A program made the position numbers and the translations under genes. A DNA stretch of 51,809 bases from Schmidtea nova. Lineage: Eukaryota. The stretch lies in NCBI GenBank assembly GCA_044892505.1, contig CM097882.1:202442192-202494000 (forward strand). Direction: 5' to 3'. The notes beneath the pieces are model-generated. The model was not told the DNA's origin, did no database searches, and saw nothing but the letters and a program-made list of their open reading frames with translations. Shown here in pieces: positions 29,637-51,168 of the stretch (position 1 is the stretch's first letter; each line of letters opens with the position of its first letter).

Positions 29637-30800
29637 TTACACATCCGTCTCCTCTGGTTCATGAAACCCTTCATCTTGGAGTTCCATTGGTGGTGGTGGT
29701 ATAAACGGTAACCACACCACTCTGCTTCTCCACATTGCAATTTCATCTTGATACGTTCGAGAGATTTGTATCTCTTCATCTAACAGATACTCCATGTAAT
29801 CTGATTGTTCGCTTAGAGTTTCAATTTGTCTTTCCATCTCTTCCACTTTTCTCTTCAGGGCTTCTACTTCTGTAGGTTCGGTTTCTACTTCTATGGTTTC
29901 TTTCAGGGTTATTATTTGTTGTTTCAGCTCCTCGTTTTCTTTCGTCAAGTTCGTTATGTTTTCCTCGTAAGCTCGGTTTGATTCCGCATGTCTTTCTTTC
30001 ACAGCTTTCAGTTCCATTTTCTTTTGGGTCACCACCCCTTGATAACCATTTACATCTCTTTCCAAGCTTTCTTTTTCCCTGTTCAACTTTTGTCTTTCCG
30101 CTTCCTCTTTTTGTCTAATACCTCGCATTTCTCCATTTATCATCTGTACTTGCCATTGCGCTTTCTTTAGTTCCTTTGCCTGCTCTCGAATAAATCGTTG
30201 TCGTTTTCGACTCCATTCTTTGTTTGCTTGTTCTTGTCGTTTTCTCTGTTCTAATTCCTCTTTCAATTCGTCTATCTCTTGATACAGTTTCCAATCTTCG
30301 CTGTGTGCTGTCCTTCTGATTATTTCTTTGGCTTCTTTATACACTCGTTTCGACTCCATCTTCCAATGTCTCGCTTGAGCCTTGATTGCTAGTATTTTTA
30401 CCTCCATCTTTTCCTCTTGTTTCTCCTTCTCTTCTCTTCGCGTTTTCATCATATTTTTATAATGTTCTGCTTGTTTCCTCATCAACTGATAGGTCTCTTC
30501 TATCTTCTGTCGACTTCGTGCATTCGTTCCTTTTAGCTTCTCTATTTGTGTTGTCAGTTGTACTATCTCTTTGTTTACTTCCTCGAGTTCTAGTTGATAT
30601 AACTCCATTCGTCGTTCGCATTCCAGTTTCTCGTAGAAATTGTTTGTCATCACTTCGTGTAACTCTCTGGTTCTTTGTTCCACTTCCATTTTACATCTCT
30701 TTTCGATTTCTCTTTCGATTTCTCTTTCTATTGTTTCTTGTTCGTTCAACATCTCGCTTCTCGTTTCATCTTCGATTACATGTTCATTTGCGTTTTCCAT
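29637..30800 (-). CDS. 387-aa long coiled-coil protein with C-terminal PPPP and acidic tail
   Basis: Intact E/K/Q/R-rich heptad sequence; acceptor TTACAG 1 nt before ATG. Confidence 0.8.
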   Translation of the reverse strand: MENANEHVIEDETRSEMLNEQETIEREIEREIEKRCKMEVEQRTRELHEVMTNNFYEKLECERRMELYQLELEEVNKEIVQLTTQIEKLKGTNARSRQKIEETYQLMRKQAEHYKNMMKTRREEKEKQEEKMEVKILAIKAQARHWKMESKRVYKEAKEIIRRTAHSEDWKLYQEIDELKEELEQRKRQEQANKEWSRKRQRFIREQAKELKKAQWQVQMINGEMRGIRQKEEAERQKLNREKESLERDVNGYQGVVTQKKMELKAVKERHAESNRAYEENITNLTKENEELKQQIITLKETIEVETEPTEVEALKRKVEEMERQIETLSEQSDYMEYLLDEEIQISRTYQDEIAMWRSRVVWLPFIPPPPMELQDEGFHEPEETDV

Positions 30801-30889
30801 TCTGTAATTTACAAATTTACACTTGTTATACTATACGTTTATTGTTGCTGTCGATTTTTACACTTTATTTACAGGGTCGTTCATTCTGA

Positions 30890-32302
30890 CTACTCCAACC
30901 ATCCTTTCGTTGACTTCGTGTTCATCACTGTTGTACTTGCTTTCTTTTCGATTTCCAATTCTACGTATAGGTTGTCGTCGTACAACATTTCCCACATTGT
31001 TTGGTGTGGTATGAATTTTGGTTCTCCAGTCGCTAATGAACATTCTGTGGTTGGTCTTTTGTAAGCTTCGTGCTTACCATCAATTTTGAATACTCTCGCT
31101 ATTGTTTCTTTCGAGTTTTTCACTCTCATTATAGCCTTTGTTTCTAGTGGCCATTCCAATATGTCGTCGTAACCACCTTTACACAACGCAAAGAATAATG
31201 ACACATGCGTTTCCTTTCCTGATCCATCTCCATTTGGATAAATTCTCATCCGGACTTTGTATTCATTTTTCCACAGATAGAATGGTGGACTTGTTACCGA
31301 CACTTGACTTCCTGTTTTTGCTGCTGTGAATTTGTCATTGAAGTTCTTGATTTTCCATACATATGGTGCAACAGGTAAACTCTCGATATCCTCTGCATCT
31401 CGCACCCATATTTGATGTCGCACGTTTACTTCTTTTACTAGCGTCTCTATGACTTTGATTTTCTCCATCATTTTCTCTCTGGTGAGCTCGAATTGCTCTC
31501 TCGTTTCCAGTAATAACTCTGTCATGATCCTCTGAGATTCAATTTCTTTTCCTAGTTTCTGTATGGTTTGTTCCATTCCGTTCAAATTTTCTGTTAACAT
31601 CTCTGCGTGTTGTACCGTCTCGGTTTCCAAATGTTCTTTCATTTCTTTGCTCGTTTTCTTTACTACACATCCTTGTTTGCTCCATACGCACTTTCTTGGC
31701 CTTGCTTCACATCGTTCCCAATGTTCTTTCAACATCACCTCTTCTCTGGCTCCACAATTACTTGGACACATTCCTCTGAATTTTCCGCACACTTTCTCTT
31801 CTGCTACATTGAGATGTTCTGTTTCAATTATCTCTCTTGTCTCCCTTTGTTCACAGTATTGACATTCTATTATTTCTGCTTTGCACTCGTTCTTGTGACT
31901 TTTCAACTGCTTGATGGTTATCGTCTGTTGACACTTTTCACATGTTGCTTTCTTGTTTTCGCATTTCTCCAGATGTTGTCTGAGTTCGATTATTTGACCT
32001 TTCCACTCACATGGTTGGTTTATACATTCTGTTTTTATCTTCCAGATCTCCTTTTGGATTGCTTTGTCTGGTTTCGTCTCGTTGATTAGTAGTTTATCGT
32101 CACACTCTGGACACTTTCTTGTCTCACTTTCACTGATTATTTGCAATATACACTTGGTGCACATCCTGCATCCACATTCCGTTTGCCTCGGTTTTAACAG
32201 TAGATTTTTACACTTTACACACGTCACATTTACTCCCCATTGTCGATTTTCTCTTCTTAGCATCTCGATCGTTTGGTAATCTGCTTCACTTTCTGCTCTC
32301 AT
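30890..32302 (-). CDS. TRAF-family protein, 470 aa (RING, TRAF zinc fingers, coiled coil, MATH)
   Basis: RING CVKC...CGCRMCTKC...CPEC; zinc fingers CINQPCEW...HLEKC; MATH VWKIKNF...SPPFY...RIYPNGDGSGKETHVSLFFALCKGGYDDILEWP...PKFI; intronless. Confidence 0.95.
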   Translation of the reverse strand: MRAESEADYQTIEMLRRENRQWGVNVTCVKCKNLLLKPRQTECGCRMCTKCILQIISESETRKCPECDDKLLINETKPDKAIQKEIWKIKTECINQPCEWKGQIIELRQHLEKCENKKATCEKCQQTITIKQLKSHKNECKAEIIECQYCEQRETREIIETEHLNVAEEKVCGKFRGMCPSNCGAREEVMLKEHWERCEARPRKCVWSKQGCVVKKTSKEMKEHLETETVQHAEMLTENLNGMEQTIQKLGKEIESQRIMTELLLETREQFELTREKMMEKIKVIETLVKEVNVRHQIWVRDAEDIESLPVAPYVWKIKNFNDKFTAAKTGSQVSVTSPPFYLWKNEYKVRMRIYPNGDGSGKETHVSLFFALCKGGYDDILEWPLETKAIMRVKNSKETIARVFKIDGKHEAYKRPTTECSLATGEPKFIPHQTMWEMLYDDNLYVELEIEKKASTTVMNTKSTKGWLE

Positions 32303-32392
32303 TCTACAACAATATTTACATCAATTTCCCCATATTTTTGATTTTTTCTGGTTCTTTATTTACACGTATTTACACAATTTTCCGCTTATTCA

Positions 32393-32743
32393 CTATACAT
32401 CCTCAGTTGAATCCGCCTCTGGATACACGTCTATTTCATTTACAATCCAGCTCGTCCAACTATCTGGTATCTCTTCCTCTTCATGTCTCGTTAATCGGTC
32501 AATTTCCTCTGCTTGCCAGTTGTTCACTTCATTCAATGTTCGGTTCTCGTTCTGTAATTCGTTTATCTGTATTTGTTGGATCTCGATTTTGTTCATTGCT
32601 TCGAAATTACAGTTATAACTCTCGGTTAATAATTGCGTTTTTGCCGTCAACTGGCTCTGTAATTCATTTACTGTTCTGGCTAGCAGGTCGCATTGTACTT
32701 TCCATCTCGTCATCATTGACATCTCGATATTTTCTTGGTTCAT
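32393..32743 (-). CDS. 116-aa coiled-coil acidic protein
   Basis: Intact, same strand and spacing as neighbours; acceptor TAG 7 nt before ATG. Confidence 0.7.
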   Translation of the reverse strand: MNQENIEMSMMTRWKVQCDLLARTVNELQSQLTAKTQLLTESYNCNFEAMNKIEIQQIQINELQNENRTLNEVNNWQAEEIDRLTRHEEEEIPDSWTSWIVNEIDVYPEADSTEDV

Positions 32744-32866: not shown

Positions 32867-35524
32867 CTATACAACTATTACTGGTTTTCCTTCGTACAGT
32901 TCTTCGTCCTCGATCTGTACCCACATCTCTTCGTGTTTTGATCGTCTTCTCAGCTCTTCTCGTACTTCTTTTGGTAGTTTTTTGTTGTAATTCGTGACCT
33001 TTACGTCCGGCCATTTTACTGCTATGGTCTTATTTCTCATGCCATATCTCCAACATACTATCATGATCGTTATCAGCGGTATACACGCTATGAATACTCC
33101 CATGCTGATTAATCCCATTACTGTTTTTCCAATGCTCATTCTTGGAGTCTCACTTTGGTTTATCATCACGCCATATTGACCTTTCCATTCTGCTTCCCAT
33201 TGTTCGTATTGTTGTTGTCTCCGTCTGACTTCTTCGATCACTTTCTCGGGTTCCCATCTTTCTTGTTGATTTTGTAGTATTTCCTCCGTCTCTGTTTGTT
33301 CTCTTTTCTGACTCAATTCTCGGAATTCTAACTTGCGGGTTCCCCCTTTTATCGTTATGTTCCTTGGCGTGTAATAGGTTTCGCACCTTTCTTGTTGATT
33401 TCCTTGTGCGTCTACTTCTTCGATTGCACACACTTCGTATTCTGCGTTTGTTTTCAACCTCCTCATTTCTACCTCGATTATTTCCCTTTTGTCATTTGAT
33501 GTCTTTTGACAGTTTCGTGGAGACTCTCTCATACTGTTTGGCATTAATGTCCAACAGATTTCTAGGACCTTTTTATGGATCTTCCATATTATCAGAGTCG
33601 TTGATTCCGGTTCGTTTTTTATTGACGTCCCTTCTGTTGTCTGTTGAGTTCCTTGACTGTTGGTTGTCGTGGTTCTTCTTGACTTTCTTTTCCTCTGTCG
33701 ACTTCCTCCCATTTCGATCGTTCTTGTACCGTTAATTTGCTCTGGCGTCTTGTACAGTCTGCACTCCAGGCTTCTTTGTATTACTTCTCTTATTCTTCGG
33801 ATTACGCAAATTTCGTAAGCTTGTCCGACTTCGAATCCATTTAGTTGAAACGGGATTCCTCGTTCTCTCGTTTTACATTGCGGTATTATGTTGTTGGTCG
33901 ATACTCCGATGTATTTTCTCCAACACATCCCAATTGTTCTCCGACCAATGTTTTTTATCTCCACCGTTACTACTTCATTCGCAATCGTTTCTTGATCTTG
34001 TTTCTTTCTTTTTGGGAATTCAATTATCTCCTTTGCTTGGAACACTTTACACTCGCTTGTTCCTGGTCTGTTTCCGTTTGCTGCTTTTTCCATGAGACAT
34101 AGTTCACATTTTCTATCTGTCTCCATTTCAGTTATCTCTATTTCCTCATTTGTCTCCGCCTCTACTATTTCTCTTGTTTCGCTGATTCCAATTACCTCAT
34201 TGTTTCGTCCCCAACATCTTCCATTCGTTGTTCGTTGATCTTGGATGTTTACTAACGTCATCACGCTGATATCTATGTCCTCCATGATTCTCTTAATGAG
34301 GATTAATATTAATGCTACACATATCAATTCTGGTTGGAATGTTAATTTGCCCGCTGAATTTCTGGTTATTCTTTCTTTCTCTGTTCGGTTTCTGATTCCT
34401 TCTTCTGCTTCAGATTGATTCTTCCCTTTCTCTGATTCCACTTCTGTTCTTCTCGTTGTCTCTTCGCTTCTTTTTCCAATCCATTTCTGTATTTTCAGCG
34501 CTTCTGTTGCTTTATATAATTGACATGCAGTTACCTGAGGTGCTTTTGGTTCTCCTCTCTGCTTTATTGCGCATATTATGTATGACTTTTCTTTCTCTAA
34601 TCCTTTGATTTGGATGACGTCCCGCTTCAAATCTGACAATATACACTTCAGCGTATCGTTTTTCCTCATATTCTCTTTCCAGCATATTCTTTCGTATACT
34701 TCATTTCTTCTAATTATCTCTAGCGTGACGTATTGTTTCTTGGCTTCTCCTTGTCCGATGATTGTTATCAATATCGCAATACACAACATTTCCGGTCTCA
34801 AAAGTAGACTTCCTGTTCGTTTTCCATAGTTTGTACGTTCGTCTTTTGTTCCATTGTTTTCTCGTTCTTCGGCTTCCCCTTTCTTGTCTTTTTCCGTTGG
34901 CTTTGGTTCTTCTTGTCTTTCTTTTTCATTATCCTCTGTTCTTTTGTTGTCATTGTCTTCGTTGTTCTTTTCGTTGTTACTTTTGTCGTCGAAGTCTCTG
35001 TAACCACCCCCTGGTCCTTTGAAAATGTCGTCCTCGACATTAATTTCTTTAATCAGTCTTTCATACGCTTGAACCGCGAGTGTGCTAGACTCGAATTCAC
35101 GTATTTCCATCTCCTTGGATGGTTCCCTGTCTTCTAGTCTACTTTGCTTGATTGCTCCTTTGGCATTTGTCCATTCATTCACATATTTTCTGAACAAGTC
35201 TTTCCATCTTCCCGTTCGTTCGGGTTCCTTTGGATTGTTCGTGAACTTCAAATCTCTTCTCTTTAAGAATTCTTCTACTATCTCTGGCTTTTTGTGTCTT
35301 AACAACGCGCTTCTGATACACCAATTCTGATTCTGTTCCATATGGTCATTGATCTTGAATGCCGGTTCCTTGGTGATCGGATTCACCCATGTTAGCAATG
35401 CTCTTGTTTTCTCTATGTCGTGTATCATTACTGTCAGACTGAAATTCTTTACGTTATTTGCCAGGTATTCTATGTCCTCTTGTCTCTTGATGGACTTTAT
35501 GAACTTGATCATCTCGAAATTGTT
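32867..35524 (-). CDS. Polyprotein C-terminal segment: end of ankyrin repeats, acidic linker, signal-like segments, ~4 FN3-like repeats, TM, short tail
   Basis: In frame with 35525-43984 across one TAG (IDIAIQ*NNFEMIKF); repeats such as IKGLEKEKSYIICA, LNGFEVGQAYEICV, LKTNAEYEVCA; TM GLISMGVFIACIPLITIMIVCW. Confidence 0.75.
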   Translation of the reverse strand, partial: NNFEMIKFIKSIKRQEDIEYLANNVKNFSLTVMIHDIEKTRALLTWVNPITKEPAFKINDHMEQNQNWCIRSALLRHKKPEIVEEFLKRRDLKFTNNPKEPERTGRWKDLFRKYVNEWTNAKGAIKQSRLEDREPSKEMEIREFESSTLAVQAYERLIKEINVEDDIFKGPGGGYRDFDDKSNNEKNNEDNDNKRTEDNEKERQEEPKPTEKDKKGEAEERENNGTKDERTNYGKRTGSLLLRPEMLCIAILITIIGQGEAKKQYVTLEIIRRNEVYERICWKENMRKNDTLKCILSDLKRDVIQIKGLEKEKSYIICAIKQRGEPKAPQVTACQLYKATEALKIQKWIGKRSEETTRRTEVESEKGKNQSEAEEGIRNRTEKERITRNSAGKLTFQPELICVALILILIKRIMEDIDISVMTLVNIQDQRTTNGRCWGRNNEVIGISETREIVEAETNEEIEITEMETDRKCELCLMEKAANGNRPGTSECKVFQAKEIIEFPKRKKQDQETIANEVVTVEIKNIGRRTIGMCWRKYIGVSTNNIIPQCKTRERGIPFQLNGFEVGQAYEICVIRRIREVIQRSLECRLYKTPEQINGTRTIEMGGSRQRKRKSRRTTTTNSQGTQQTTEGTSIKNEPESTTLIIWKIHKKVLEICWTLMPNSMRESPRNCQKTSNDKREIIEVEMRRLKTNAEYEVCAIEEVDAQGNQQERCETYYTPRNITIKGGTRKLEFRELSQKREQTETEEILQNQQERWEPEKVIEEVRRRQQQYEQWEAEWKGQYGVMINQSETPRMSIGKTVMGLISMGVFIACIPLITIMIVCWRYGMRNKTIAVKWPDVKVTNYNKKLPKEVREELRRRSKHEEMWVQIEDEELYEGKPVIVV

Positions 35525-36790
35525 CTACTGTATTGCGATATCTATGATGGAATTATTCTTTCCATTTTTCCCTTCGATTTTTGCTCCTGCTTCGTATAAT
35601 TCGCTTAGCACTTTAAAGTTCGTCTTCTTTCTTGCTGCGATTATCATGATTGTATCTCCGTTATCATCAACCGTATTCATGTCCGCTTCGCATTTGACCA
35701 TTGCTTTCGTTATTTCTAGCACTTCGTTTTCTTTCTTTCGACGTAATGCCCAGTGTATCGGCAATCTCCCATCCTTTGATAATAGGAATGCCACTGGCAT
35801 TTGATTCTTGATTGTGTCCATATCACTCTCGTTATAATCTCCTTGTGCGTATCTGTGCACTTTCTCTGTAATCGCTCCTAGTATCTCTAGCGAGTTTTTA
35901 TTCTCTTTGAATTCCGATAATTTTTCCTGCGCTTTTACTACGATTGCGTCTAATCTCTCTTGATATTCCGCTTTTGCATTGAACAACACTGCTTTGTTTC
36001 TTATTCGCGTTTGCATCTGTTTCATTCGTTGGTCTTGATATACTGCTTGTCTGAAGAATTGTCCATACTTCAATGCTTCCATCAGCTCTTTATATCGCTT
36101 GCTTATTTCTTTGTGCTGCTTTTGGATGTCATAGAAATGTTCGAAGCTCATATCCGGATTCCATTGCTTATCACACCATTTCTTGATTAATCCGAATAAT
36201 TCTTTCTTTCTGTCTTCCAGCTTGTATTCTCTTGGGTTCTCACTAACCCGTAGCGTATCTCTCGCTATCAACACTGCAAGTGTTTTTGGATCGTATGTTA
36301 CTTCTAATAGATGTTTCAGTAACGCATTTTCTCCCCTTATGAACACTTCATTACAATCTATGACCCACGAATCTCCTTCTGGTCGTTTCCACTTTAGCAA
36401 TATTCTCCAGGTTTTACTATTTCTTACTCCGATTGCTTGTTTCATGATCGATCCTCTAGTTAGTTCATCGATTTCCCACGTGGCATTTTCCGTGATATAC
36501 TTCAGTATTCGGTGATTCGCTCTATCAATTGCATGATTCAAGAATGTTCGTCCCTCTTTATCTTTTGTCAACCAATTCGATCTGGTGTTTCCGAATAGCT
36601 TGATTATTTCATCTTTTCTTCCATGAATCGTCATCATCATAAGTGGAGTAATTCCTTCCCAATTCACTTTGTCAATTTCTCCTCCACCTTCGAGTATCAT
36701 CCCTACAATTTCCTTCACTTTTTCGTTTCCACTGTGCTTGATTGCATTGTGCAACGCGGTATTACCGTCTTTGTCTTGTAGATTCAATGT
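35450..36790 (-). CDS. Ankyrin-repeat region fused downstream of integrase
   Basis: QDKDGNTALHNA, NWEGITPLMM, KDKEGRTFLNHA, KDGRLPIHWA, DDNGDTIMIIAA, GKNNSIIDIA. Domain edges approximate. Confidence 0.9.
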
Positions 36791-37149
36791 CTGAGGGATC
36801 TCCTCTAGCAGCGTCCTTGTTATTGGATGTGCTGTTCTGTCTTTTGCATACTCCATTACATTCTTTCGAACTTCTGACAGTATATTGAAATCGTGCCACC
36901 ACCTCCATTCCGGTATAATTTCTCTGGTTTTCCTTGCCAGTTCTTTGATGTCTATTATCTCCCTTCGGTTGTCCTCTAGACTTGTTTGCGGCTTTTGTTG
37001 TACTCGCAACATACTGATTCTCGCCGTCTGTGATCTTGTCATTACCCGTTTCTCTGGTGATAGAGTTGCTGTCTTTGGTATTTTCCTGCATCGACATGCA
37101 TTCACGTATATTGGTCTTACCAATGGATTGTTCACCAATCGTACTCGCA

Positions 37150-40100
37150 CATTATTTTCGTTTACTGTTGTGATTTCATATGGCCCTTTGCCTGGTCGTT
37201 GGAGTTTTTTGACCGTACCGGGTATTATCTCTGGTGTTTCGATTATCACCCAATCTCCAACTTTTAAATCATGTGCTTTCACATTCTTTTTCTGATCATG
37301 CAGATCCTTGTAACTCTCTTGATAGAACTTGATGTTCAGTTCCGCCGTTTTCCAGATTTCTTGCATTCTTTCTTTGAACTTTGTAACGTAATCGTCAACC
37401 TCCATGTACTGTGATAATGGTGGTTGGTATTCTAAATCGATCGGTAAGTTGCAATCTCTTCCGTACATCAGTTGGAATGGACTTAGCTTTGTTGCCGCAT
37501 GTATTGACATTCTGTATGCCATTAAACACAAGTTTATATACTCGTCCCAGTCAGTCTGGTGTTTGCTGACGTAATTCGACAACATGCGTATTAATGTTCC
37601 ATTGAATCTTTCTGTTTGACCGTTCGTTTGTGGATGGTATGGGGATGTTCGTAATTTCGCAATTCGGAAGTAATTCGTAACTTCGTCTAATATTTCACTC
37701 ATGAAATTTGTTCCTTGATCCGTTAGGATTTTCTTTGGTGTTCCGTATCTGCAGCATATCTCTTCCACCAATATTCTCGCGACTGTTTTTGCCTTTTGAT
37801 CCGGTATTGCGTATGCTTCTGGGAACTTTGTTAGATAGTCCGTGACTACTAATATATACTGATTCCCCTTTAAACTTTCCGGCAATGGTCCAACTACATC
37901 CATTGCTATCGTCGCCATAGGTTCTGCAGGTATTGGCATTGGTTTTAGTGGTGTTTTCCACTTCGTTCCGACGTTCTTTCTTGTCGCACAGGTTAAGCAG
38001 TTCTTTATCCATTCTTTCACATCATCTTCCATGGTTGGCCAAAAATACTTTTGTCTCAATCTCCCGATTGTCTTTTTTGCTGACATATGTCCGCCTAATT
38101 TTCCGTCATGATATTGAGTCATGATTTCCTTTCGTCTGTTCGCAGGTAAGCACATTAATCTCCGTTCTCCATCTTGTATCAATAACCATCCTTTCTCCAC
38201 CACATATCTATGTTGATATTTCTGCATATGTTCGCGCAACGTTTGGTTCTTGCCGAATATTTCCATTTCCCTTTCTTTCAGATACTTGCTGATCATTCCC
38301 AACTCCTCATCTTCGAGTTGATCTTTCCTTAGTTCGCTGAAATCCAAATCTTCCGCTATTAATGCACATATTTTTAGAGCATTCAGGTTCACCAATTCTG
38401 GAAATGTAAACCTTGACATGCAATCCGCATTTGCATTTGCTTTTCCTGCTTTAAACTTTATGAATGGCGAGTATTCCTGCAACTGCATCGCCCAACGCAT
38501 CAATCTACTTGATGATTCTTTATGTTGACCTAACCATACCAATGGTTGATGATCCGTCGTGATATATATTTCATGACCCCACAATAAGTACTTGAAATGC
38601 TTGATTGCCAATATTATCGCATAGGCTTCTCTTTCCGTGACTGAGTAATTCTTTTCGTGCTTCCTGAACGTTCGACTGTAATATCCAATTACTCTTTCCT
38701 TGCCTTCTTCGTCAAATTGGCCTAGTACTGCTCCTGCTGCATATCCACTTGCGTCTGTTGCCAACAGAAATGGCTTCTTAAAGTCTGGATGGACCAATAT
38801 TGGTGCTGTAATCAGCTTATCTCGTAATGTTTCAAATGCTGCTTGCTGTTCTGGTCCCCATACAAACGACACGTCTTGTCTTACTAATTCTTGCATTGGC
38901 TTTGATATTCCGGCATAGTCCTTGATAAACTTTCGATAATATCCACACAATCCCAAAAATTCTTGTATTTGAGTCACTGTCTTTGGTGGTGGACATTCTT
39001 TAACTTTCTCGATATTCCTTGGATCTGGTTCTTTTCCTTTTGCCGATACAATGTGACCTAAGAATGTCACTTTTTCTTTTGCCCAATCGCACTTTGACGG
39101 CTTTAATTTCAGTTTCCATTGCCTTAATTTCACGAACACATTTCTGATGTCTTGCAAGTGATCCTCGAATGTTGCAGAGTAGATCAATAGATCGTCGATG
39201 TACACCATGCATTGTTTTATGCCATGTGTTACGAAATTCATGCATCTCTGGCATGATGCTGGCGCGTTTGTTAACCCAAACGGCATTTTCTTGAATTGGT
39301 ACAGATCTCGTCCGATTGTAAATGCTGTCTTCTCTTTATCCTCGTCTTTCATTTTGATCTGCCAATATCCACTTTTTAAATCCAGTGACGTGAAATAAGC
39401 TGCTCCTTGTAACGTCAATAACATTTCGTTTATGTCTGGCAGTGGGTACGTATCTCTTTTCGTAACTGCGTTCAATCGTCTGTAATCGATACAGAATCTC
39501 TGAGTTCCATCCTTCTTTTTCACCATCACCACTGGGAATTGCCAGGGTGAGCAACTAGGTTCGATGACCTCTGCATCTAACATCTTTTGTACCTCTTCTT
39601 CTGCCACTGCTTTTTGCGCTTCTGCCAATTTATATGGTCGTAATGCGATTGGCGTTTCGTCCGTCAACGGTATCGTATGTAATGTTACATCGCATGTTCC
39701 TAAATCCAGATCCGATGCTGCGAATATATCTTTATACTCCATCAACAGTTTCTGTAGCCGTTCTTTTTGTCGTTCGTCTAACAACACACTGTCGATTTTC
39801 CATGGTAATTCGCCTTTGCCTTTCTCATTCTTGTCTGGTATCTCGATTTCGGACATGGGTGTTAATTTACCCAAATTCTCATTCTCGTATATTATCTTGT
39901 CCTCTTCGTCGAAGTTTACCAGATTAATCGGTATTTCTCCTTCTTGGTTTATCGTGACCAATTCTCTTGCCATTGGTAATTCTTTCTTTGCTTCGAACTT
40001 CTTACTGGGTTCGAATATCATATCTCCTTTTATTGTCGAATCGATCTTTACATAACACATCATTTCATGTCTCGCTGGCACTACTATTTGTTCCGCACTT

Positions 40101-40480
40101 GCCACTTTAACTTTCATCCTGCAGATTTTTCCTGTCCTATCTTTTAACTTCATTGCTCCTAGATCAATTATGATTTCCTTGAACAGGTCTGGCATCAGGT
40201 CAGTTCCAATAATACATGGTACACTCAGCGATGGTATTACAGCGATGTACGTGTTGATCTCTGCACCTCGATGCTTAATTTTTACAAACCATCTTCCGGC
40301 TACTTCTACTGTCTCTTGACTGCACGCGATTACATGTACGTTCGTCTTCTCGATTTCTCCTTGATTTTTCTCTGGTATATAGTTGATGTCGATTGCCGAA
40401 ATATTCGCGCCTGTATCGATCATTGCTTCAATTTCTCTGCCATTTATTTCTACGGTTGTTGTTAAGATCGGTCCCATATT
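37150..40480 (-). CDS. pol: Pol domains: aspartyl protease, RT, RNase H, integrase (within ORF 35525-43984)
   Basis: PR AMIDTGAN (~40415); RT RFCIDYRRLN, LDLKSGYWQ, MPFGLTNAP, VYIDD (39191-39205); RH ATDASG...TDHQPL; IN HHCC finger, MDVVGP / TDQGTNF / NGQTERFN, GPY motif. Domain edges approximate. Confidence 0.97.
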
Positions 40481-40699: not shown

Positions 40700-42850
40700 C
40701 TGGTTTATATTCGCTTGTCCTCCTCGATCGTCATCGTCATCGTCGTCGTTGCTTGAATCATCTTGTGTTCGATATCCCTTCACTCTTTCCCATAATCCTT
40801 TCCTTTCTTTCTTGAGTTGTCGCCTTGCTTGTTCGTCTTGCATTATCTTTTTGAATTTTCTTCCGACATCTTCATTTGTTCCTTTCATTTTTGCAAGTAT
40901 TTTCAACAATCTCTTTATTCGATGAATGTCTTTTGAGTGTCCGTGTAACACCATCGTTTTCGCAAGGAATGGTAAAAACCCTACTACCATCTTCCAATTC
41001 ACTTTCTTTTCTCTTTTGTAGATATCGAAACACGCTAACATTTGCGTTATTATCACTCTGACGATTTGTATTATCAATATAACACCCAGTATTCCAGCCA
41101 TCATTTGTCCAAATATCAGGAATCTTCCCCACATTGCCTTCATCATATTTTCTGTGGCTTTCTTGAAATGTGCCGGTGACAACAACAGTTCGTAATTCGG
41201 TCCTTCTCGATAATTCGTTCCTCCCGTTATTGTTACGATATTTGACAGTAATGCTTCTCTTCTTGCCGGAAATAGTATATTCTGTCTTGCTGCTTCCAGA
41301 TCTTTTGGACTATAGATTCCGTTGTTTGAGACATCTACGTCACTGAACTGTCTATCCTTCGATAACTGCATTAGCTCAAATTCTCTTGGTGCTAATACTT
41401 CTGTTCTTCCTGGGAACATAACCCATTTGCCATCTGGCTTCTGATAAAGCGGTCCGTACGCGTTACTACAGTTGAATGGATTTGGTTCAAACCCTGGTGG
41501 ATTGATGATTCTCGTCACCGGTTGAACGTATCGTACTTTTCCTTTGTAATCGATTTCTAGTTCGTTTGTACATTGTCCAGGTTTCAACTGCGTTGTTGCT
41601 GCTAGCGATGCATGTGTCTTTTCGCAAATGTATACGTACATTGCCTCTCCAACCACTCTTCCGAAATGTCCTTCTCTCAGTGGTAATAACGGCATCGCGC
41701 TATCTGGATTCGTAATCGCTACGGCCAACTTTGTCTTCAATATTTCCCGATTCAGTATACAATCGTTGTTTATCAGATCATAGTACACTTTTTGCAATGA
41801 GGCTTGTCCTCTATGGAATAAGAAATCCATTTTATTATTCACATACAAGTGTAGCTTGATATCCATGGTGTCGATCTTGGGTTTCGCATTCGGCACTTCT
41901 TGCTTTGACACGTATATTCCTGGATAGTTCGTTTCGTATACTGTTGTACTGCACTTAAGGGTTGCTTTCCCTTTTATGAATCTCATGCCCACATCCTGAT
42001 TTGTGGTTATCAACACTGTTGGTGTGGTTCTCATTTCTATCCGTTTCTCTCTATGATCCGGTTTCAATTGTCTTTTATTCTCTAAAGCCTCTTTGAGATG
42101 TTTTGCTCTAGCTTTGTCATCATCATCTTCTTCTTGGAATGTTTTCCCTTGAATTTCGTCAAACTTTGCTCCTTGTAGCAGTTGTAATTGACATTCGTTC
42201 ACTTTTGGTTTGTATACCAATGTTGACATTCCCGTTTGACACATGCTTCTGTCAATTTTACACATGGATAACGTTTTCATTTCTCCTGTTGTTGGTTCGA
42301 AGAATGCTTCGTAACTTTTCAGTTCAACTATGTACGTATCCATTACTACTAAGTTGGTTGCGGGTACTCCGAATATTGGGTAGGTTTCTCCTTGACAATA
42401 CCCTTCTCCTCCCGTAATCCGTCCTGCTACATAATACGTCTGCTGTAACATCATTCCTGGCTTTCCTTTTATCTTGATTTTATCTCTCGTTGTTACTTCT
42501 CCATGTTTGAACAATGCTTCGCAGTCTTCTCCTTGCAACACAATTGGTTCTCTTTCGGTTCCTGGCATGACAATTGCTGAATAATGTCCTCTACCGCAAT
42601 AGAATGCGAATCTCGTCTTTTGCACTTTGCATTCATTCACCATTGTCTTTATTAGTTCTGCCTCTTGATACACGTGATACCATTGTTCCTTTTTGATCTC
42701 TTTCAATTTTACTGGAGTTGCATCTTTGCACTGCTCCGTACCTCTCAATGAGTACTTTTCTCCTAACTTCATTTGATCACAGTCAAATACTTCAAATGTT
42801 GTTACACCCTCTGTGCTTAACAACCATACTATCATCATCATGATTATCGA
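40700..42850 (-). CDS. env: Envelope glycoprotein, chuvirus (Jingchuvirales)-like class III fusion type, between Gag and Pol
   Basis: Signal-like NSIIMMMIVWLLS then FEVFDC...YSLRGTEQC; CKVQKTRFAFYCGRGHYS; YVNNKMDFL...VYYDLINNDCILNREIL...GEAMYVYIC; TM FLIFGQMMAGILGVILIIQIVRVII. Family assignment comes from my recollection of the motif pattern, not from a search. Confidence 0.8.
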
Positions 42851-42964
42851 GTTCAAATTCAACGTCGATCTTCCGTTTCCTTGCATCGTTTGTCTATTCT
42901 CCATTTCTCTCAATACTCCTTCAAGTTTCTTTCTCATCACGTTTGACCCTTCTTTTGTCTGGTT

Positions 42965-43360
42965 CTCTTTTATGAACTTTTCCCATCCTCCTTTTCTGAG
43001 GATATACGGTTCAATTTCTTTCTCGATAATCATCGCCGTATTTTTAATATGTCTTCCCATCGGGCTTGACTTCGGACTTTCTCGGCTTAGCGTTAACAAA
43101 TTGTATATCGTATACGAGATTGCTACTAGATATTTGCTGTCCGTTTCTGCTCCGTTTAGTAGCCTTTTTACCAACGTCGTGGTTCCTTGCCAATCTAGAT
43201 GATTCGATTTTGTTTTCGCCTTGATCAGTTCTGGCATAATCGGTGCTATCGCGTTGTGTAGCATCCTTGCCTTCGTACCGGGTTCGTTTATCCGCCACAG
43301 ATTCTTTAATTCTGGGTCAATTATCGCTAACACATCCATTATCGTTTTGGTGAGCCATTC
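42965..43360 (-). CDS. Divergent Bcl-2-like domain (within polyprotein)
   Basis: BH2-like IEPYILRKGGWEKFIKE (compare Bcl-xL LEPWIQENGGWDTFVE); BH1-position helix LVKRLLNGAETDSKYLVAISY lacks NWGR. Confidence 0.6.
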
Positions 43361-43987
43361 CTCTCCTTGGCAGACTTGATTCTCCTCTTTTCCTCTGATT
43401 TCTGCGATTTTGTCTAATTTCTTCAAGCAAATCTCCCATTGCTCTTGTCTCCTTTCTTCCCTTGTCTTTGGGATTGCTGTTGCTGGATCTATCTTTGGTC
43501 TTCCTCTTGGTCGTTTTTCCATTCCAGTTCCGGTTTCTACAAATCTCGTTACTCTTCCCGTTTCTTCCGTAACATCTCTTCCTTCGTTTGCTCGTTGTTC
43601 TAACCATCTTTCCATTTCTTGAGTAAACTGTGGTTGTTCTTGCTCGTCTTCTGAATCGTTTACCATTTCTATGACTACCTCCTGTTCCACTCCTTGATCG
43701 TCGATTTCTGCTGGTGACGTTATTGGCATCTCTATTATTCTGTCAAAAATATTCGCCGTTGGTTTTTGAGTCAACTTTGTTAATTCTTCTATCGCCTCAT
43801 CACTGTCTGTTAGTATCTCATCGACGTCATACGCTTCTGGCGGTGTTCTCTCTCTCGTTTTTATTGGTGTTGTCCTTGCTTGTCCTGAACTTGTTCCTGG
43901 GGTCATTGTTGACTTCATCGGACTTGGTGTACTCATGCTTCCTTTCGCTTTCTTTTCCTCTTTAAACTTCAGTGGTTGACCCACTAT

Positions 43988-46576
43988 CTATGCCACGGTT
44001 AACGTATTCATTAGATCCAATTGCACTGGTGTCAGCCAGATTTCCAAATTGTTATCCAACGATCGTCCTTGATGTTGCAGGTGGAATGGTAGTTCGTACA
44101 TCAGTTTCTCTTTAACACTTTTCACTTTTTCCGTTAGCATCACCCAAAACTCTTCTTTTCTTTGATTCGGATACATTATCCTCAAATGTATTTTCTGTGG
44201 CGTTTCTTCCGCAAACTCTTTGTTTCTCCACTTTTTTATTGCATCGTCTAGTTGCTCTGGACACCACTCGTTAACTCTCTTGTATTCTGCTATCGCTTTA
44301 GCTACTTTTCTCAAGTTCGTCATGTCTTCTCCATTTGAGATTATGAATTGTGCTAAGCCTTTTATTGTTTGTCTTTTTCCCCGAGTATTTCCTCTCAATA
44401 GCTCGATCAATTCACTCGTTTTCTGTTTCTCCAATTCTGCCCATATTACTGCAGTTTCTGGTCCGTCTAAGTCCGTTGGTAATATCCTCCTTGTTACCAT
44501 ACATATCCGTTTCGTATTCCGTTCATATCTGTCTTCTCCTTCCGGATCTTCTTCATATACGCCTCTTTTCACTTTCCAACATTTCTCTTTGTTATCCCAT
44601 TGCTTCTCTACTGGCGTCAATCGTCGTCTGTTAAGATCCAATTCTCCCAATATTGTCTCCCATTCTGGCTTCATCTGCCAGTTCCGATAGATTTCTACTA
44701 TCTGCCTCAACTTGCGCATAACGTCCTCTTGTCGTTTCTTTCTCCTTTCCTCATCTCTTGGTGTTGCTCTTGGCACATCATCCATTCTGATGACATGTAT
44801 TGTTTGATAATTATCCCATATGCCAATTTTATACGCTCGTCTTTCGTCACGTTCATTCAGTAGGTGTTCTTTGTATTTTATCGCAATGTCATCCTCGAAT
44901 TCATCTTCCCGTTCTCGTTGTAATATCGTCTCATTGATGACATCTACTATTTCTCCCACTTTACTATCTGGTATTACCTCAATTTGTCTTGTCTCTTCAT
45001 TCGGCAATCTCACGGTAATCTTCAGATCTGATACCTCTCCTCGTTTAAACATTTCTTTCCCCATCTTGGCGATTAACTTATCCGTTTTGAAATTTGAGTG
45101 TCTCGTTTGACTGGTATCTCGTATGTTCTCGATACACTGTTTCAAATTCTCATACTCGCTTTTCGTCAATTCCTTTCGATGTTTCTTGATTTGTTGAATG
45201 ATCTGTTCTATCATCGTATTCAAATTCTCCGCCAAGATTCTCTCTTTTGCCTCTATCAACTGAGGTTTTATTCTCATCTCGTAACACGTATTCGCTTCTT
45301 TGACGATTCCTTGTAAGTTCTCTTCCTTTTTGGTGTTGCATATTGATAACGTCGTTATTTCTCCTGGCCAGATGCCTGTGTCTATCATATGCGTGCCTTT
45401 TCTCACCAATCCGTTTTGTGAGTATATGAACTTGTCTTTGTACGAGCTTCCCAATCTGTCCTCAACCCATCGATATATTCCATCCGTCATTGGGTTCTTT
45501 ATCCAGATTCTCGGTGAACACTCGTTTATCCATATTTGTATTACGTATTCGTTCAGTGGCTCTTTCAATAACTTCTCTATGAATTCTTGTATTACCCTCA
45601 CTTCTCCTTCTTGTAACCACTCTTTATACTTCGTCTGCCATACTGCTCGTATAAACTTTCGATATCGTTTCGTGTCGATAAACTCCTCGTTATGGATTAC
45701 TTCCAACGCGTTATCCATCAGCTTCTGAATTTCGTCTTCCGTTACTGACAATGTTTCTATTGTCTCGACTACTTCCATCTTTTTGTCCTCGTTTTCCGGT
45801 TCCTTTAGCATGTCTCCTGCCAGACTGCTAACTTCGCTGTCGTCTTCTTCATCTGACAACTCTTGTCTTGGGTGTCTCAGCATCCCAATATGTGCGGTTG
45901 GTCTCGTTTCGTTTTTGCTAACTTCTTGTATTAGTTCATTCTCGTTTCCTGTTACTTCAGCTTTTCCCATTCTTTTCTCCAATTCGTCTATTTCTTCCAA
46001 CCGTCTTCGTCTTATTTTTCCCTTGAATATTCGACTGATCCGAGTTTGATGTTTCACTGGTGGTGGGATTTTCTCCGGTTCCACCTCTCTGATGATCATC
46101 ACGTTTATTTTTGTCTCCGTTACTCCCATATCTTCCCATATATCAGTCATCTTTAACTTCACTTCCGGTAAATCTTCTGTTTGTAGGAATGCTTCTCTGG
46201 GCAGTTTCATCACTCCCGGCATCATCTCATTTACTTTATTGAACAATCTTCCCACTTCTTCTTTTACATCGTATTTGAATCGCCACACGTGATCATTCGG
46301 CATGATCACCAACATTCCTCTTTGTTTGATTCTCACTTCCTCTTCTTGATTCGTTTCTTTTTCTGTTTCTTTTTCTTTTTCTACTTCTTCATCCTTTTGA
46401 TTCTGCTCTGCGGCTTCTACTTCCTGATTCACTTCTTCTTGTTTCTGCTCTTCGTTTCTTTTCTCTTTAATTTCTAACTCGTCTGACTCATCCTGCTGCT
46501 TCTCTTCCATCATTGCTCGCATCATGTTGATCCTTGGATTTCCCTTTTTTAACTGTTGTAATCGTTGTTGCCTGAC
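43988..46576 (-). CDS. Polyprotein segment with three ubiquitin-like (beta-grasp) domains
   Basis: Ubl-like stretches GMLVIMPNDHVWRFKY... (~46320-46085), LKITVRLPNEETRQIEVIPDSKVGEI...TIHVIR (~45030-44785), IHLRIMYPNQRKEEFWV...NTLTV (~44195-43991); in frame with both neighbours. Confidence 0.6.
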   Translation of the reverse strand, partial: VRQQRLQQLKKGNPRINMMRAMMEEKQQDESDELEIKEKRNEEQKQEEVNQEVEAAEQNQKDEEVEKEKETEKETNQEEEVRIKQRGMLVIMPNDHVWRFKYDVKEEVGRLFNKVNEMMPGVMKLPREAFLQTEDLPEVKLKMTDIWEDMGVTETKINVMIIREVEPEKIPPPVKHQTRISRIFKGKIRRRRLEEIDELEKRMGKAEVTGNENELIQEVSKNETRPTAHIGMLRHPRQELSDEEDDSEVSSLAGDMLKEPENEDKKMEVVETIETLSVTEDEIQKLMDNALEVIHNEEFIDTKRYRKFIRAVWQTKYKEWLQEGEVRVIQEFIEKLLKEPLNEYVIQIWINECSPRIWIKNPMTDGIYRWVEDRLGSSYKDKFIYSQNGLVRKGTHMIDTGIWPGEITTLSICNTKKEENLQGIVKEANTCYEMRIKPQLIEAKERILAENLNTMIEQIIQQIKKHRKELTKSEYENLKQCIENIRDTSQTRHSNFKTDKLIAKMGKEMFKRGEVSDLKITVRLPNEETRQIEVIPDSKVGEIVDVINETILQREREDEFEDDIAIKYKEHLLNERDERRAYKIGIWDNYQTIHVIRMDDVPRATPRDEERRKKRQEDVMRKLRQIVEIYRNWQMKPEWETILGELDLNRRRLTPVEKQWDNKEKCWKVKRGVYEEDPEGEDRYERNTKRICMVTRRILPTDLDGPETAVIWAELEKQKTSELIELLRGNTRGKRQTIKGLAQFIISNGEDMTNLRKVAKAIAEYKRVNEWCPEQLDDAIKKWRNKEFAEETPQKIHLRIMYPNQRKEEFWVMLTEKVKSVKEKLMYELPFHLQHQGRSLDNNLEIWLTPVQLDLMNTLTVA

Positions 46577-48262
46577 TTATTCTTCTTCTCGTCGTACTCT
46601 AGCCCATTCTTGATTATGTTTCTGTTGACTCTCTCTGTTTTCTCTTTCGGCCTCAGCTTCTATTAACTGGATCATGTTTATCTTTGGTTGAGCAGCTTGC
46701 TGGCTTCCCTTTGCCATGCTTTCGATTATCTCGTGTAATCTGGATACCTCCTGTCTCAACTTAGCTTCTTTCATACTAGCTTCGTTTGCACTGCTGTTTG
46801 GGTTGTTCCGTTGTTGACCTTGATTCCCATAGCTTGGTCGATTCCCGTAATTCGGTCTATTTCCACTGTTTGACCAACTTCTCTGTTGATTACAGTCTCT
46901 TGACATGTGTCCGGTTTTCCCACATGTGTAACACGTTTTCCCATAACATCGATTTTCTGAGTGACCCTTTTGTCCACACAGTTTACAGGCTACATTCTGA
47001 AAACACTCTTGTTGCCAATGTCCGTTTTTCCCACACGTCTGACATTGCCTATTCTGCCTGTCATTGTAACTATTTCCTCCATTCGGGTTCACCGTGATAT
47101 ATCCGTTATTTTTCCTCGCTGGCGGTTCTTTGAACAATCTCTGCGAATGGGGAATACTTTGATTCATGTTTCTTTTTCCTTGTTCTTCATCTTCTGTCGT
47201 TTTTCCCATTACCGCCGTAATTCTCATGTCATTCATTGCCATATGCAATTCGAATAGGTTGGCTGCTTCCAACGCTTCATCTACTGTTTTACATCCTTTG
47301 CATCCCACTTGTGCTCTGATGTCAGGTCTCCTGAGACCTCGTACGAATAACGCTGTCATCAATTCTTCGTCTACTGGGCTTCCTCTATTGAATGCCAGTT
47401 TCGCCAACTTTCTTAATTCACTTGCGTACACTGCATTTGACTCGTTTCTCCTCTGTTTTCTTGCTGAGAACTCATCGAACGCTTCGTTCAACACTTTATT
47501 TATCCCAAACGTCTGTTGGAAGAACTCCTTGATTGCTTCCCACGTTCTGGGTGGATTACTTCCCGATCTCTTCTCAATATACAGATCCAATGCGCTATCT
47601 TTCAAGTATAGCGGGATTCGATTCGCTAACGTTTCTGCACTCCATCCGCATATATCCACGAATATGCCAAATTCCTTTAGAAACGTATCCAATCTACTGG
47701 CGTCTCCATTGAATGGTTCGCCCTTGAATTTTTCTCTTAGATCCTCTCTGTGATCACTCATCCCGATTCCACTATCTTGGAATACTGTACTAGTTTTCTT
47801 TACTTCTAGTTCACCACTTGTTTCTGAATTCGACTCTTCTTCTTCACCACTCTCTGTTTCGTTATCTCTTGATTCGCTTCTTGTTCTGTTTTCCCTGACT
47901 AGTTCACTGTCTATCGTCTCTACTTCGTTTTGTACTTCTAGATCTTCTGGGGTTTCTTCTTGGTTCTCTTTGTTACTCGAATTATCGCGGATCTCTACTT
48001 GTTTGTTCTTTTGTTGCTTAGGCTTGTTACCTGTTCTTGTCCTTTTTGCTGCTTTTCTTTCTGCTTCCGTTAAGATTGGTATTATACCTGATCTTGTTTC
48101 TCGTCCCTCAATTTTGTCTATTCCTCAACTGCTTATATTCTCAACCGATTTTCTACTTCGCTTTTGCTTTGCTTCTTCTTTGATTTGTTTCCTTTGATTG
48201 CTCTGACTGCTAGATTGCCTTGAATTGCTTGATTGATTTGTTTCCTTAAAACAAATAATCAC
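46577..48262 (-). CDS. gag: Gag (Ty3-type capsid plus three CCHC knuckles) with an in-frame acidic/basic N-terminal extension
   Basis: PFNGDASRLDTFL...PLYLKDSALDLY capsid; CQTCGKNGHWQQEC, CKLCGQKGHSENRC, CYTCGKTGHMSRDC; frame stays open upstream of ATG 47761 to 48262 apart from TGA at 48125-48127. Confidence 0.9.
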
Positions 48263-48634
48263 TTACACGATACGTCCCCGTTATCGTGTTTCTCGTCCCT
48301 CTCACGGGTGTAGTCATAATTCATGAAGATCCCCATTTTTCCCATTTCCCTTGATTTTACGTCTATTTAAATTATCTATGCAGTCGCATCAATTATCTAT
48401 TCTTTATCAAATACACCAATTACTTTTCCCCAGTTTCCCAATTACTTTGTCGCTCAGCGCTCTTATTATCCCCTTTACTTTTCTCAGGCTTCTCTGGCTC
48501 TGAGTTCTAATTTCCCCTTATCTGTTGACTACTCTGTTTCTCGACTACTCACTTTATCTCTTATTCACACTACGTTTACTACTTCATTTCAATTCTCATC
48601 TCTACTCACCTTTAATTCAGCTGACCTCTCTCGT

Positions 48635-49102: not shown

Positions 49103-49420
49103 CCTTCACTTACTCACTTTACTTTGCTACTCCTCCTTGTATGCATACTTTAACATCATTAGGCCACATAATCAGCTTTACTCGCATTTATCAATACCCA
49201 GGTGCGCACCTTCAACTCTCTCGTTATTAATTCGGTTTCTTTCAACCCTTATTCCTCATTATTCATTTTCACTATTCATCATTTATCCTCATTATCAATT
49301 ATTCGTCTCTATTATCGCTTATTGATCTTCACTATCCGGATAGTTTTATGCTTTATTTAGTCCTCATCTGCCTCACTTCGTCGTCTTTCTCGTGGGCTTT
49401 TACTCAATATTTTATTTCGA

Positions 49421-50015
49421 ACGAGAACTATGCTCACTGCTGAGAACTATGCTCACTAACGAGAACTATGCTCAATGACGAGAACTATGCTCAATGACGA
49501 GAACTATGCTCACTGACGAGAACTATGCTCACTGACGAGAACTATGCTCACTGACGAGAACTATGCTCAATGACGAGAACTATGCTCAATGACGAGAACT
49601 ATGCTCACTGACGAGAACTATGCTCAATGACGAGAACTATGCTCACTGGCAAAACATGGTTGTTATGAGGGTTTTGCCTACTGATGGAAACTCTTTGCTC
49701 CGGGGGCTATGCTCCCCGATGAGAACTATGCTCACTGATGGTGACTACAGGAATTATGTTTCCTGATGAGAACTAAGCTCACTACGATGATTATGTTTAT
49801 TTCTGAGAACTACGCTCACTGATGAGGACTATGTTCGCTGGTCTTGTGTTTATTACTGAGAACTCTGCTCACTACGAGAACTATGCTCACTATGGTGTTG
49901 TGTTTTATGACGAGACCTACGCTCACTAGGATGTTATGTTTTATGACGAGACCTATGCTCACTATGATGTTATTTTTATGACGAGACCTATGCTCACTAT
50001 GAGACCTATGCTCAC
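49421..50015. repeat. 19-bp tandem repeat (GACGAGAACTATGCTCAMT), ~12 clean units to ~49650, then degenerate expanded units
   Basis: Directly visible; internal GAG-N7-CTC dyad. Confidence 0.9.
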
Positions 50016-50709
50016 GAACGAAAACTCGAAATATCATCTCTCAGTGGTTGCATGTGTTGCTTCGGGATGTTCCTCCCATTGGTCACTTATGCTTCTTCGG
50101 AGAATCTATTGTCGCGTTTCGTTAAGTTCTATCTTTCAAGAACTATGGGCAAATCCTTTCTCTTTAGGACCCCTTTTATCATTTCCTTTCTTTCAAGGAT
50201 TTCCTTTAACCTCGAGTTTTCCATTTACTCGGTTCATCTGTTATACCCCTTTATTCTATTATCTATTCGTCGACTTCTCTACTTGATTTTACTTTATGCG
50301 AGCTGATTACGTGCCTTTCCTCATATACCACATTTATCCCCTTTTATTATTCATTTCCTCATTCTCCTTCTCTACTGATCAGTTTATCATCCTATTTTTA
50401 TAGTTTTTCTGCGCGCGCCTAAACCTCATTGGGTTGTCCTTACCTTTCACCCCAACCAAAATATATAAAAAGATCGCATTGGTCCACCGATGCACGATGT
50501 GGTGATCAGTCACATCACAAGGGTTTTCCAATATCCGCGATTGGCCCCTTTCTACACATCTCGGGTAAGTTGATCAGTTGGTTCCCCCCAATGGGTGCTT
50601 ATCGGACTACTCGTGAGTAGCTCATTATTACTTAGGTCATTTTTACCAAATCATCTTTAAACCCTCATAATTTCAATAACAACTGCACTTGTTCAAAACT
50701 TTATTTCTA

Positions 50710-51168
50710 TTACAAGTACACTGTTATTTTCTCGGATACGGGAAGGTTGCACATAGGACATCGTTCGTTTATTTTACAGTCATTACAGAATCGAAAATGC
50801 CCACACGGCAACAACATTATCTGTATCTTATTCATTTCACAGATATAACACGTCAGGTACTGTTTCGTATATTCGGTTGTTAGTCTTGTCCACTCATCGT
50901 GTTTTGTTGTTAACTGTTGCTCTAGCCTGTGGCACTCGATATTCATTTCAGGGTTGTTTAATCTTTCTCTGTACCATTTGTATCGCGTTGTTGTATCCAC
51001 TGTTATCTTATTCTCGCTTATGCTCATCATCATTTCGGCTCTTTCTGTGTTGTTTGTCGGTTCGTGGTATCCTTCTACCTCGAGTCGTCTTAACTTCCTC
51101 ATTATTGTCTCCACTGTTTCGTTGTTTGTTTCGAAAAACGTTTGCATTTCTTTTATTTTGTTCTCCAT
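50710..51168 (-). CDS. 152-aa protein: coiled coil plus C-terminal IAP/MDM2-type RING (C3HC4), no BIR
   Basis: CYICEMNKIQIMLLPCGHFRFCNDCKINERCPMCNLPVSEKITVYL-stop; acceptor TTCATTCAG 3 nt before ATG; AATAAA at 50700-50705. Confidence 0.85.
   Translation of the reverse strand: MENKIKEMQTFFETNNETVETIMRKLRRLEVEGYHEPTNNTERAEMMMSISENKITVDTTTRYKWYRERLNNPEMNIECHRLEQQLTTKHDEWTRLTTEYTKQYLTCYICEMNKIQIMLLPCGHFRFCNDCKINERCPMCNLPVSEKITVYL

Follow-up and report, generated by a model that had tools for sequence, protein, structure and literature searches.

Selectively maintained TRAF, RING, ankyrin and FN3 cargo in a young Burro-clade retroelement of Schmidtea nova

The 51,809-nucleotide stretch of the Schmidtea nova genome analysed here (contig CM097882.1; the window) carries a single long terminal repeat (LTR) element on its minus strand that hosts all of the cargo described below. 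It runs from position 25588 to past the window end and measures 29.4 kb in total. The window copy is a recently inserted, defective member of an active, env-bearing Ty3/gypsy family of the Burro clade, and its anatomy, copy number and youth as well as the selection on its cargo were directly observed. We consider it fairly probable (roughly 60%) that the TRAF, RING, ankyrin and FN3-transmembrane (FN3-TM) modules, together with the likely ubiquitin-like (Ubl) and Bcl-2-like modules, are selectively kept and benefit the element through interference with the stress and death signalling of the host in the producing cell.

An initial annotation of the window had described this cargo as a toolkit acting on cell death and NF-kB. 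The observation was largely right, but the functional labels were too strong: selection on the cargo and the broad folds were upheld, whereas the labels IAP, canonical Bcl-2, IkB-like and NF-kB were not. Its theme had also been published, and its novelty had been set too high, most modules having appeared in descriptions of Burro elements between 2007 and 2019. Interference with apoptosis and ubiquitination was already proposed for Burro cargo in the Burro section of PMC6431247, and a report of anti-apoptotic Burro cargo, which the annotation had mentioned, does exist: Burro1 B-IAP, with RING and BIR, shields stem cells from caspase-mediated death (Lee et al. 2026, as cited in PMC13465017). 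BURRO1 is described as expressed and PIWI-controlled (PMC8532177). What is new here is the quantitative evidence of selection on every cargo module. Neither the FN3-TM module nor a cargo-bearing Burro element lacking reverse transcriptase (RT) was found described in the literature searched, which excluded the main Burro1 paper, and FN3 is not named in the Burro section of PMC6431247.

The element and the selection on its cargo

A single gag-env-pol frame (48124-32867, 5086 codons) includes the Ubl, Bcl-2-like, ankyrin and FN3 modules. A RING protein is specified by a separate open reading frame (ORF) upstream of it, and further separate ORFs on the downstream side code for a short coiled coil, a TRAF, a long coiled coil, a transmembrane (TM) protein and two proteins within the LTR. 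As the initial annotation had stated for its intronless cargo, all modules lie on the sense strand of the element, the minus strand, in uninterrupted frames. The principal features are listed below; the ratio of non-synonymous to synonymous change (dN/dS) is given for shared variants, i.e., those present in two or more copies, all others being termed private.

51726..51809, minus: inner end of the 5' LTR, which extends past the window up to a position equivalent to 54976
50710..51168, minus: accessory ORF with a helical region and an IAP-type C-terminal RING, without BIR (shared dN/dS 0.14)
46880..47761, minus: gag with three CCHC knuckles (Pfam, zinc pattern), first Met at 47761
43991..46339, minus: four ubiquitin-like repeats (43991-44221, 44777-45025, 45308-45562 and 46067-46339) with helical segments between them, from profiles (0.03-0.09)
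42938..43390, minus: Bcl-2-like domain, BH2-type GGW kept, BH1 NWGR replaced
40898..42805, minus: Env-like fusion glycoprotein of Monjiviricetes type, in frame between gag and pol (Pfam PF24664, E 1e-71)
37631..40459, minus: pol, with protease, dUTPase-position segment, RT, RNase H and integrase in Ty3/gypsy order
35528..36940, minus: two ankyrin-repeat clusters after the integrase (Pfam Ank_2, E 7e-17; 0.06-0.10)
33350..34807, minus: four FN3-like repeats, from repeat alignment, with signal-like hydrophobic segments preceding the first two
33047..33103, minus: TM helix predicted from hydropathy at the end of the FN3 module, followed by a short tail and the polyprotein stop at 32867
30890..32302, minus: full TRAF ORF with RING, TRAF zinc fingers, coiled coil and MATH (Pfam, PDB; 0.08)
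25588..28838, minus: 3' LTR of 3251 bp, TG...CA, with a 4-bp target site duplication (TSD; TCTG)

The second LTR was found in the adjoining genome sequence and differs from the 3' LTR by one mismatch in 3253 aligned bases. The polyprotein frame of the window copy is interrupted by three internal stops, all private to this copy, as the aligned copies have sense codons at these positions (16/16, 16/16 and 18/18), which rules out programmed readthrough; the terminal stop at 32867 is common to 18/18 copies. The private stops together with the near-identical LTRs suggest that the window copy was a defective template copied in trans. Upstream of the gag Met, about 120 codons (47762-48124) are also open and constrained (shared dN/dS 0.23), and the stop behind them is common to 16/16 copies; translation may begin at a non-AUG codon, or the region may be entered by splicing.

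A genome search with the RT gave 116 scored matches, 106 at 96-100% (family A, that of the window) and ten at 93% (family B). We assign one polyprotein to family A because 27 of the 106 RT matches fall within frames no shorter than 5070 aa; the frame at the RT is shorter in the other 79. Selection was assessed in 18 family-A copies (every sixth by RT rank) and the first six of the ten family-B copies, using a simple count of dN/dS over at most 19 related sequences, with matches below 85% nucleotide identity dropped. LTR pairs are 98.6-100% identical in the 15 of 18 family-A copies that could be compared and 99.9-100% identical in 6/6 family-B copies.

The annotation had named absent or decayed cargo, with dN/dS near 1, as what would speak against it. 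Of the 18 family-A copies, 16-18 carry any given cargo module (gag is present in 16, Env in 17) and 13-18 have it unbroken, and all modules occur in the six family-B copies, save one FN3 repeat that falls under the 80% coverage cut. Shared variants give dN/dS of 0.01-0.22 across all cargo: 0.01 for Bcl-2, 0.03-0.09 for Ubl, 0.08 for TRAF, 0.06-0.10 for ankyrin, 0.05-0.16 for FN3, 0.14 for RING and 0.22 for the TM tail, compared with 0.01 for the RT. Private variants give 0.09-0.50, and 12 non-coding frame controls give 0.29-1.55. The Bcl-2-like domain accumulated 52 synonymous and two non-synonymous shared variants. Between families A and B, synonymous sites are near saturation (proportion of differences pS 0.56-1.03), and the corresponding non-synonymous proportion (pN) of the cargo is 0.15-0.46. 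As judged from the aligned copies, every cargo module is under purifying selection, contrary to the decay that would have refuted the annotation.

The assignment to Ty3/gypsy follows from the TG...CA LTRs, the TSD, the primer-binding site (PBS) and the order of gag followed by protease, RT, RNase H and integrase; pol matches the Pfam families RVP, RVT_1, RT_RNaseH, Integrase_H2C2 and rve, with the catalytic words present. Typical of Burro are the length of ~30 kb, the multi-kb LTRs, the single polyprotein of ~5000 aa, the TRAF/MATH, ankyrin and Ubl cargo, and the Env in frame between the BCL2-like motif and the protease. According to the Burro section of PMC6431247, Burro1/GYPSM1 and Burro2-4 are likewise ~30 kb long with long LTRs, a ~5000-aa gag-env-pol frame and three CCHC knuckles, and Burro1-4 share the position of Env as well as Ubl, ankyrin, TRAF/MATH and coiled-coil cargo. 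The motifs named there for Burro/GYPSM1 are MATH_TRAF_C, BIR, ankyrin, BCL2-like, Ubi2/SUMO-like and dUTPase-like, along with the in-frame env. Two traits specific to Burro1 were not observed in the window element: Burro1 has a BIR and places MATH inside the polyprotein, whereas the window element has no detectable BIR and carries a complete RING-to-MATH TRAF gene in a downstream accessory ORF; a Dugesia element differs again in having MATH upstream (PMC6431247). Reference Burro sequences were not among the protein-search matches to the FN3 ORF, the Bcl-2/Env region or the Ubl ORF.

Identity of the cargo modules

The full TRAF reported initially was borne out by Pfam (RING, zf-TRAF and MATH) and by PDB matches to TRAF5/3/1/2 (E 7e-26 to 5e-23), which place the ORF among the TRAFs. 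All 89 scored genome matches to it lie at 93-100%. The upstream RING at 50710-51168, previously called IAP-type, matches Pfam zf-C3HC4_3 (E 3e-9) and is closest to the RINGs of cIAP2, cIAP1 and XIAP in the PDB (E 1e-6 to 3e-5). In the window element, however, Pfam detected no BIR and the six frames contained no BIR zinc pattern; because an IAP requires at least one BIR, we rejected the IAP identity while retaining the kinship of the RING. Burro1 B-IAP shares the IAP-type RING with the window ORF and, unlike it, has a BIR (as described in PMC13465017).

The ankyrin repeats are real, but generic ankyrins and DARPins mostly rank first in the PDB and Bcl-3 far lower (E 2e-7), which does not sustain the description as IkB-like. 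An NF-kB target is likewise not upheld: a clear NF-kB homolog was not found in Schmidtea according to the accessible text of PMC13563047, which nevertheless reports seven divergent factors with Rel homology domains. Our genome search for Rel homology gave no candidates, but the positive control was likewise unmatched, making the search uninformative.

The FN3 module was correctly recognised and comprises four repeats and a TM segment. The model of the repeat at 33725-33988 reached a confidence (pLDDT) of 81, and the other three repeats are assigned by alignment. For the modelled repeat, Foldseek listed FN3 domains almost exclusively (E 0.02-0.15, probability mostly 0.9-1.0), and structure comparison with VIA gave Z 6.2-7.6; thus one modelled repeat of four adopts the predicted FN3 beta-sandwich. 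There is no Pfam fn3 match in the window, and a sister family (E, below) has weak ones (E 0.001-0.002). A protein search with the FN3 ORF returned no match among 7993 candidates of similar length.

Ubiquitin-like domains were predicted in the annotation as well, with a count of three; we find a fourth Ubl-like repeat at 45308-45562. As a single sequence, the Ubl ORF matched nothing in Pfam, the PDB or a library of 1.84 billion proteins. Profiles of the repeats match a ubiquitin-like domain and ubiquitin variants, the best at E 0.0025, a beta-grasp assignment made from profiles and not from a structure model. A distant relative, P0001, matches Pfam ubiquitin at E 4e-5. This 4057-aa protein from a public assembly has gag, Ubl, Env and ankyrins before the protease, then pol and a C-terminal TM segment; it keeps the Ubl, a segment in the Bcl-2 position, Env and the ankyrins in a cargo order unlike that of the window. 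The helical segment before the last Ubl (44222-44400) presumably resembles an N-terminal-type bundle of TFIIS, judging by eye, and similar segments stand before Ubl in families C and D, introduced below, and in P0001.

For the Bcl-2-like segment, a single-sequence search gave no match. Its profile reached Bcl-xL/A1 at E 0.05-0.26, and a sulfotransferase shared the first rank. The predicted structure has eight helices at low confidence (pLDDT 51). All rows listed by Foldseek for this poor model are Bcl-2 family members or complexes (E 0.06-0.22), whereas a wide VIA comparison ranked unrelated helical proteins first and Bcl-2 chains at Z of at most 4.3. The homologous segment of family D, 26-28% identical to the window domain, matches Pfam Bcl-2 (PF00452) at E 4e-6. 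A protein search with the Bcl-2/Env region gave one match among 6595. Taken together, the Ubl and Bcl-2-like assignments are likely, the support being consistent but weak. A canonical anti-apoptotic label does not fit: two host Bcl-2 genes of the same genome keep NWGR, whereas the element domains keep GGW only. The poxvirus proteins A52, B14 and K7 are viral Bcl-2-fold proteins without BH1. The element resembles them, by description and not by sequence, in having a probable Bcl-2-type fold without canonical BH1 in a parasite, and differs in that its domain sits in a retroelement polyprotein beside Env.

Related families and the proposed role

Families related to the element locate the BIR elsewhere. 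A genome search for BIR listed the best 150 of 1295 candidates, most in frames of ~399 aa, and the flanks of seven were examined; an autonomous BIR carrier could lie among the rest. One of the seven flanks was incomplete upstream, and the other six have a common layout (family C): a RING ORF, a ~1045-aa ORF with Ubl, protease, ankyrins and one FN3 (split in one copy), a coiled coil, a TRAF, a BIR-RING IAP and another coiled coil. Between the LTRs of these six copies, no match to Env, RT, RNase H, integrase or Bcl-2 was obtained at E 1, and most of gag is missing as well. Their LTR pairs are 99.8-100% identical, and 5/5 non-tandem copies have a 4-bp TSD. Family C numbers at least 150 copies by protease matches at 95-100%, of which four lie in frames above 1070 aa and none above 2134; three of these four were inspected and are explained by a long insertion, by a remnant of gag and by a deletion fusion, respectively. 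In family C, TRAF has a shared dN/dS of 0.09, IAP of 0.20, ankyrin of 0.09 and protease of 0.17, but the values are higher, and based on few changes, for FN3 (0.52) and Ubl (0.98). With paired LTRs and a TSD and no detectable RT, RNase H, integrase or env, family C is, by its sequence, a recently mobilised, non-autonomous LTR element.

Non-autonomous LTR derivatives include LARDs, TRIMs and defective retroviruses. Family C is similar to these in being LTR-bounded and TSD-flanked, in lacking RT and integrase and in sharing terminal cis-sequences with an autonomous family. Unlike them, it keeps an intact-looking protease and accessory genes (RING, Ubl, ankyrin, FN3, TRAF, IAP and coiled coils), with purifying selection acting on most of them.

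When the genome was searched with the gag remnant, no close parent of family C with a long frame appeared among the best 150 of 178 matches; the nearest among the matches listed is family E, with ~5000-aa frames. Family E has MATH within the polyprotein between Ubl domains, the placement seen in Burro1, and several FN3-like repeats with a TM segment. Its RT is 88% identical to that of the window and its protease 72% to that of family C. The LTR ends of families C and E are 95-97% identical and their PBS flank is common, whereas the LTRs of families C and A do not align. The kinship of C and E rests on these identities and LTR ends, because a protease tree, rooted on a very long branch, gave family C no settled place. 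As a separate observation, family D has a ~3070-aa gag-Ubl-Bcl2-Env-pol frame followed by an overlapping ORF of 739-869 aa without a Pfam match. No BIR pattern occurs in the checked stretches of B (one copy), E (three) and D (two); the BIR-RING ORFs sampled in this genome lie in the RT-less family C and not in A, B or the sampled stretches of D and E.

On the reading we prefer, interference with host stress and death signalling, the cargo would be comparable to the accessory genes of complex viruses and be kept because it aids replication of the element. The protease of the element would cut the ~5080-aa polyprotein into Gag, the Ubl array, the Bcl-2-like domain, Env, the enzymes and the ankyrins. 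Internal signal-like segments would direct Env and the FN3-TM protein into membranes; a C-terminal anchor for the Bcl-2 domain may also be provided by the hydrophobic segment that precedes Env. The accessory ORFs might be expressed from spliced RNAs, as YAG occurs within 10 nt upstream of the first ATG in 7/7 accessory ORFs versus 136 of 655 ATGs in total. Host TRAF- or IAP-type complexes could be the targets of TRAF and the BIR-less RING, which would serve there as ubiquitin ligases or as decoys. Direct blocking of caspases by family A appears unlikely because it has no BIR.

Several points weigh against this reading. The BIR, the sole module with a reported function, is not found in the window element; the functions of the modules are predicted, and the splicing and cleavage steps are read from motifs. 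BH1 NWGR, the motif expected of an anti-apoptotic Bcl-2, is replaced in families A, B, D and E. For Ubl and Bcl-2 the fold matches do not reach formal significance, and the structure model of the latter is of low quality. Selection indicates that the proteins matter to replicating lineages and is not proof of an action on host death pathways.

The strongest competitor, which we regard as unlikely but worth serious attention, is that the modules mainly serve the life cycle of the particle. Ubl and the RING/TRAF ligases would then function in sorting, budding or polyprotein turnover, the FN3-TM protein would join Env in attachment or cell contact, and the Bcl-2-like domain would be an adaptor to the membrane where it borders Env, not a regulator of cell death. 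Such roles would suit the in-frame position of Ubl, Bcl-2-like, ankyrin and FN3 modules with gag-env-pol, the adjacency of the Bcl-2-like domain to Env in A, B, D, E and P0001 with loss of both in family C, and a Bcl-2-like domain constrained like the RT with NWGR replaced. However, TRAF and the upstream RING have ORFs of their own, and family C, without Env, RT and integrase, keeps TRAF, RING, IAP and ankyrins under selection (dN/dS 0.09-0.20), which suits a host-directed action.

Mutualism, in which the cargo is kept for a host benefit such as stem-cell survival or regeneration, has a precedent in the protection of stem cells reported for Burro1 B-IAP (PMC13465017) and would fit the high copy number with cargo intact in most copies. 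We judge it improbable for the window element, as family A has no detectable BIR and, in most modules, constraint is tighter on shared than on private variants, the pattern that selection during replication of the element would produce. That the cargo is host sequence hitch-hiking neutrally, to which the three polyprotein stops of the window copy and the 79 of 106 copies with shorter frames might point, is rejected as highly implausible, with every module far below the non-coding controls in dN/dS and conserved across families whose synonymous sites are saturated.

Cargo functions differ among families, as a Burro family can be successful while lacking the BIR to which the protection of stem cells is attributed. 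The IAP is held by a high-copy RT-less relative. Tentatively, labour may be split: autonomous A, B and the Burro1-like E would provide Gag, Env and the enzymes but no BIR, and the RT-less satellite C, with at least 150 copies, would carry a selected BIR-RING IAP and full TRAF, paying for its ride with anti-death genes. Were family C a true satellite, the planarian host-transposon mutualism would be a three-party system. TRAF genes carried by such elements are also relevant to the unexplained expansion of planarian TRAFs (PMC6109357), part of which the C copies could explain; the whole word "Burro" is absent from the accessible text of PMC6109357, and "transpos" and "intron" do not occur in that of PMC7586133.

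Other features of the element and its surroundings

The remaining parts of the element are as follows.

51702..51719, minus: primer-binding-site-like word, common to families A, B, C and E
32393..32743, minus: short coiled-coil-like accessory ORF, in 18/18 copies (shared dN/dS 0.04)
29637..30800, minus: coiled-coil-like accessory ORF (0.11)
29039..29563, minus: accessory ORF with a signal-like start, a helical region and a TM segment, in 18/18 copies (0.10)
26727..27362, minus: second LTR-borne ORF, no function assigned (ORF list, copy comparison)
25972..26535, minus: LTR-borne ORF of 187 aa from the first Met, no function assigned

The word at 51702..51719 we take to be of the tRNA-Pro type; the window itself contains no tRNA gene. 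The ORF at 29637..30800 is probably the "Smc" motif of Burro descriptions. Homologues of the ORF at 25972..26535 occur in 16/18 family-A and 6/6 family-B copies. The 5' leader (48602-50002) contains six units spaced by ~85 nt and about 12 tandem copies of a 19-nt unit. Before the 3' LTR (28839-28875) a plain polypurine tract was not seen, and a conserved word there is common with family C.

Outside the element, an older, diverged LTR, probably solo, lies on the plus strand at 12912-15995 and is 70-76% identical to the LTR of the element. It contains ORFs at 14224-14826 and 15038-15613, the first with at least 150 relatives in the genome at 48-100%. A 15-nt tandem array of about 34 copies occupies 19349-20033.

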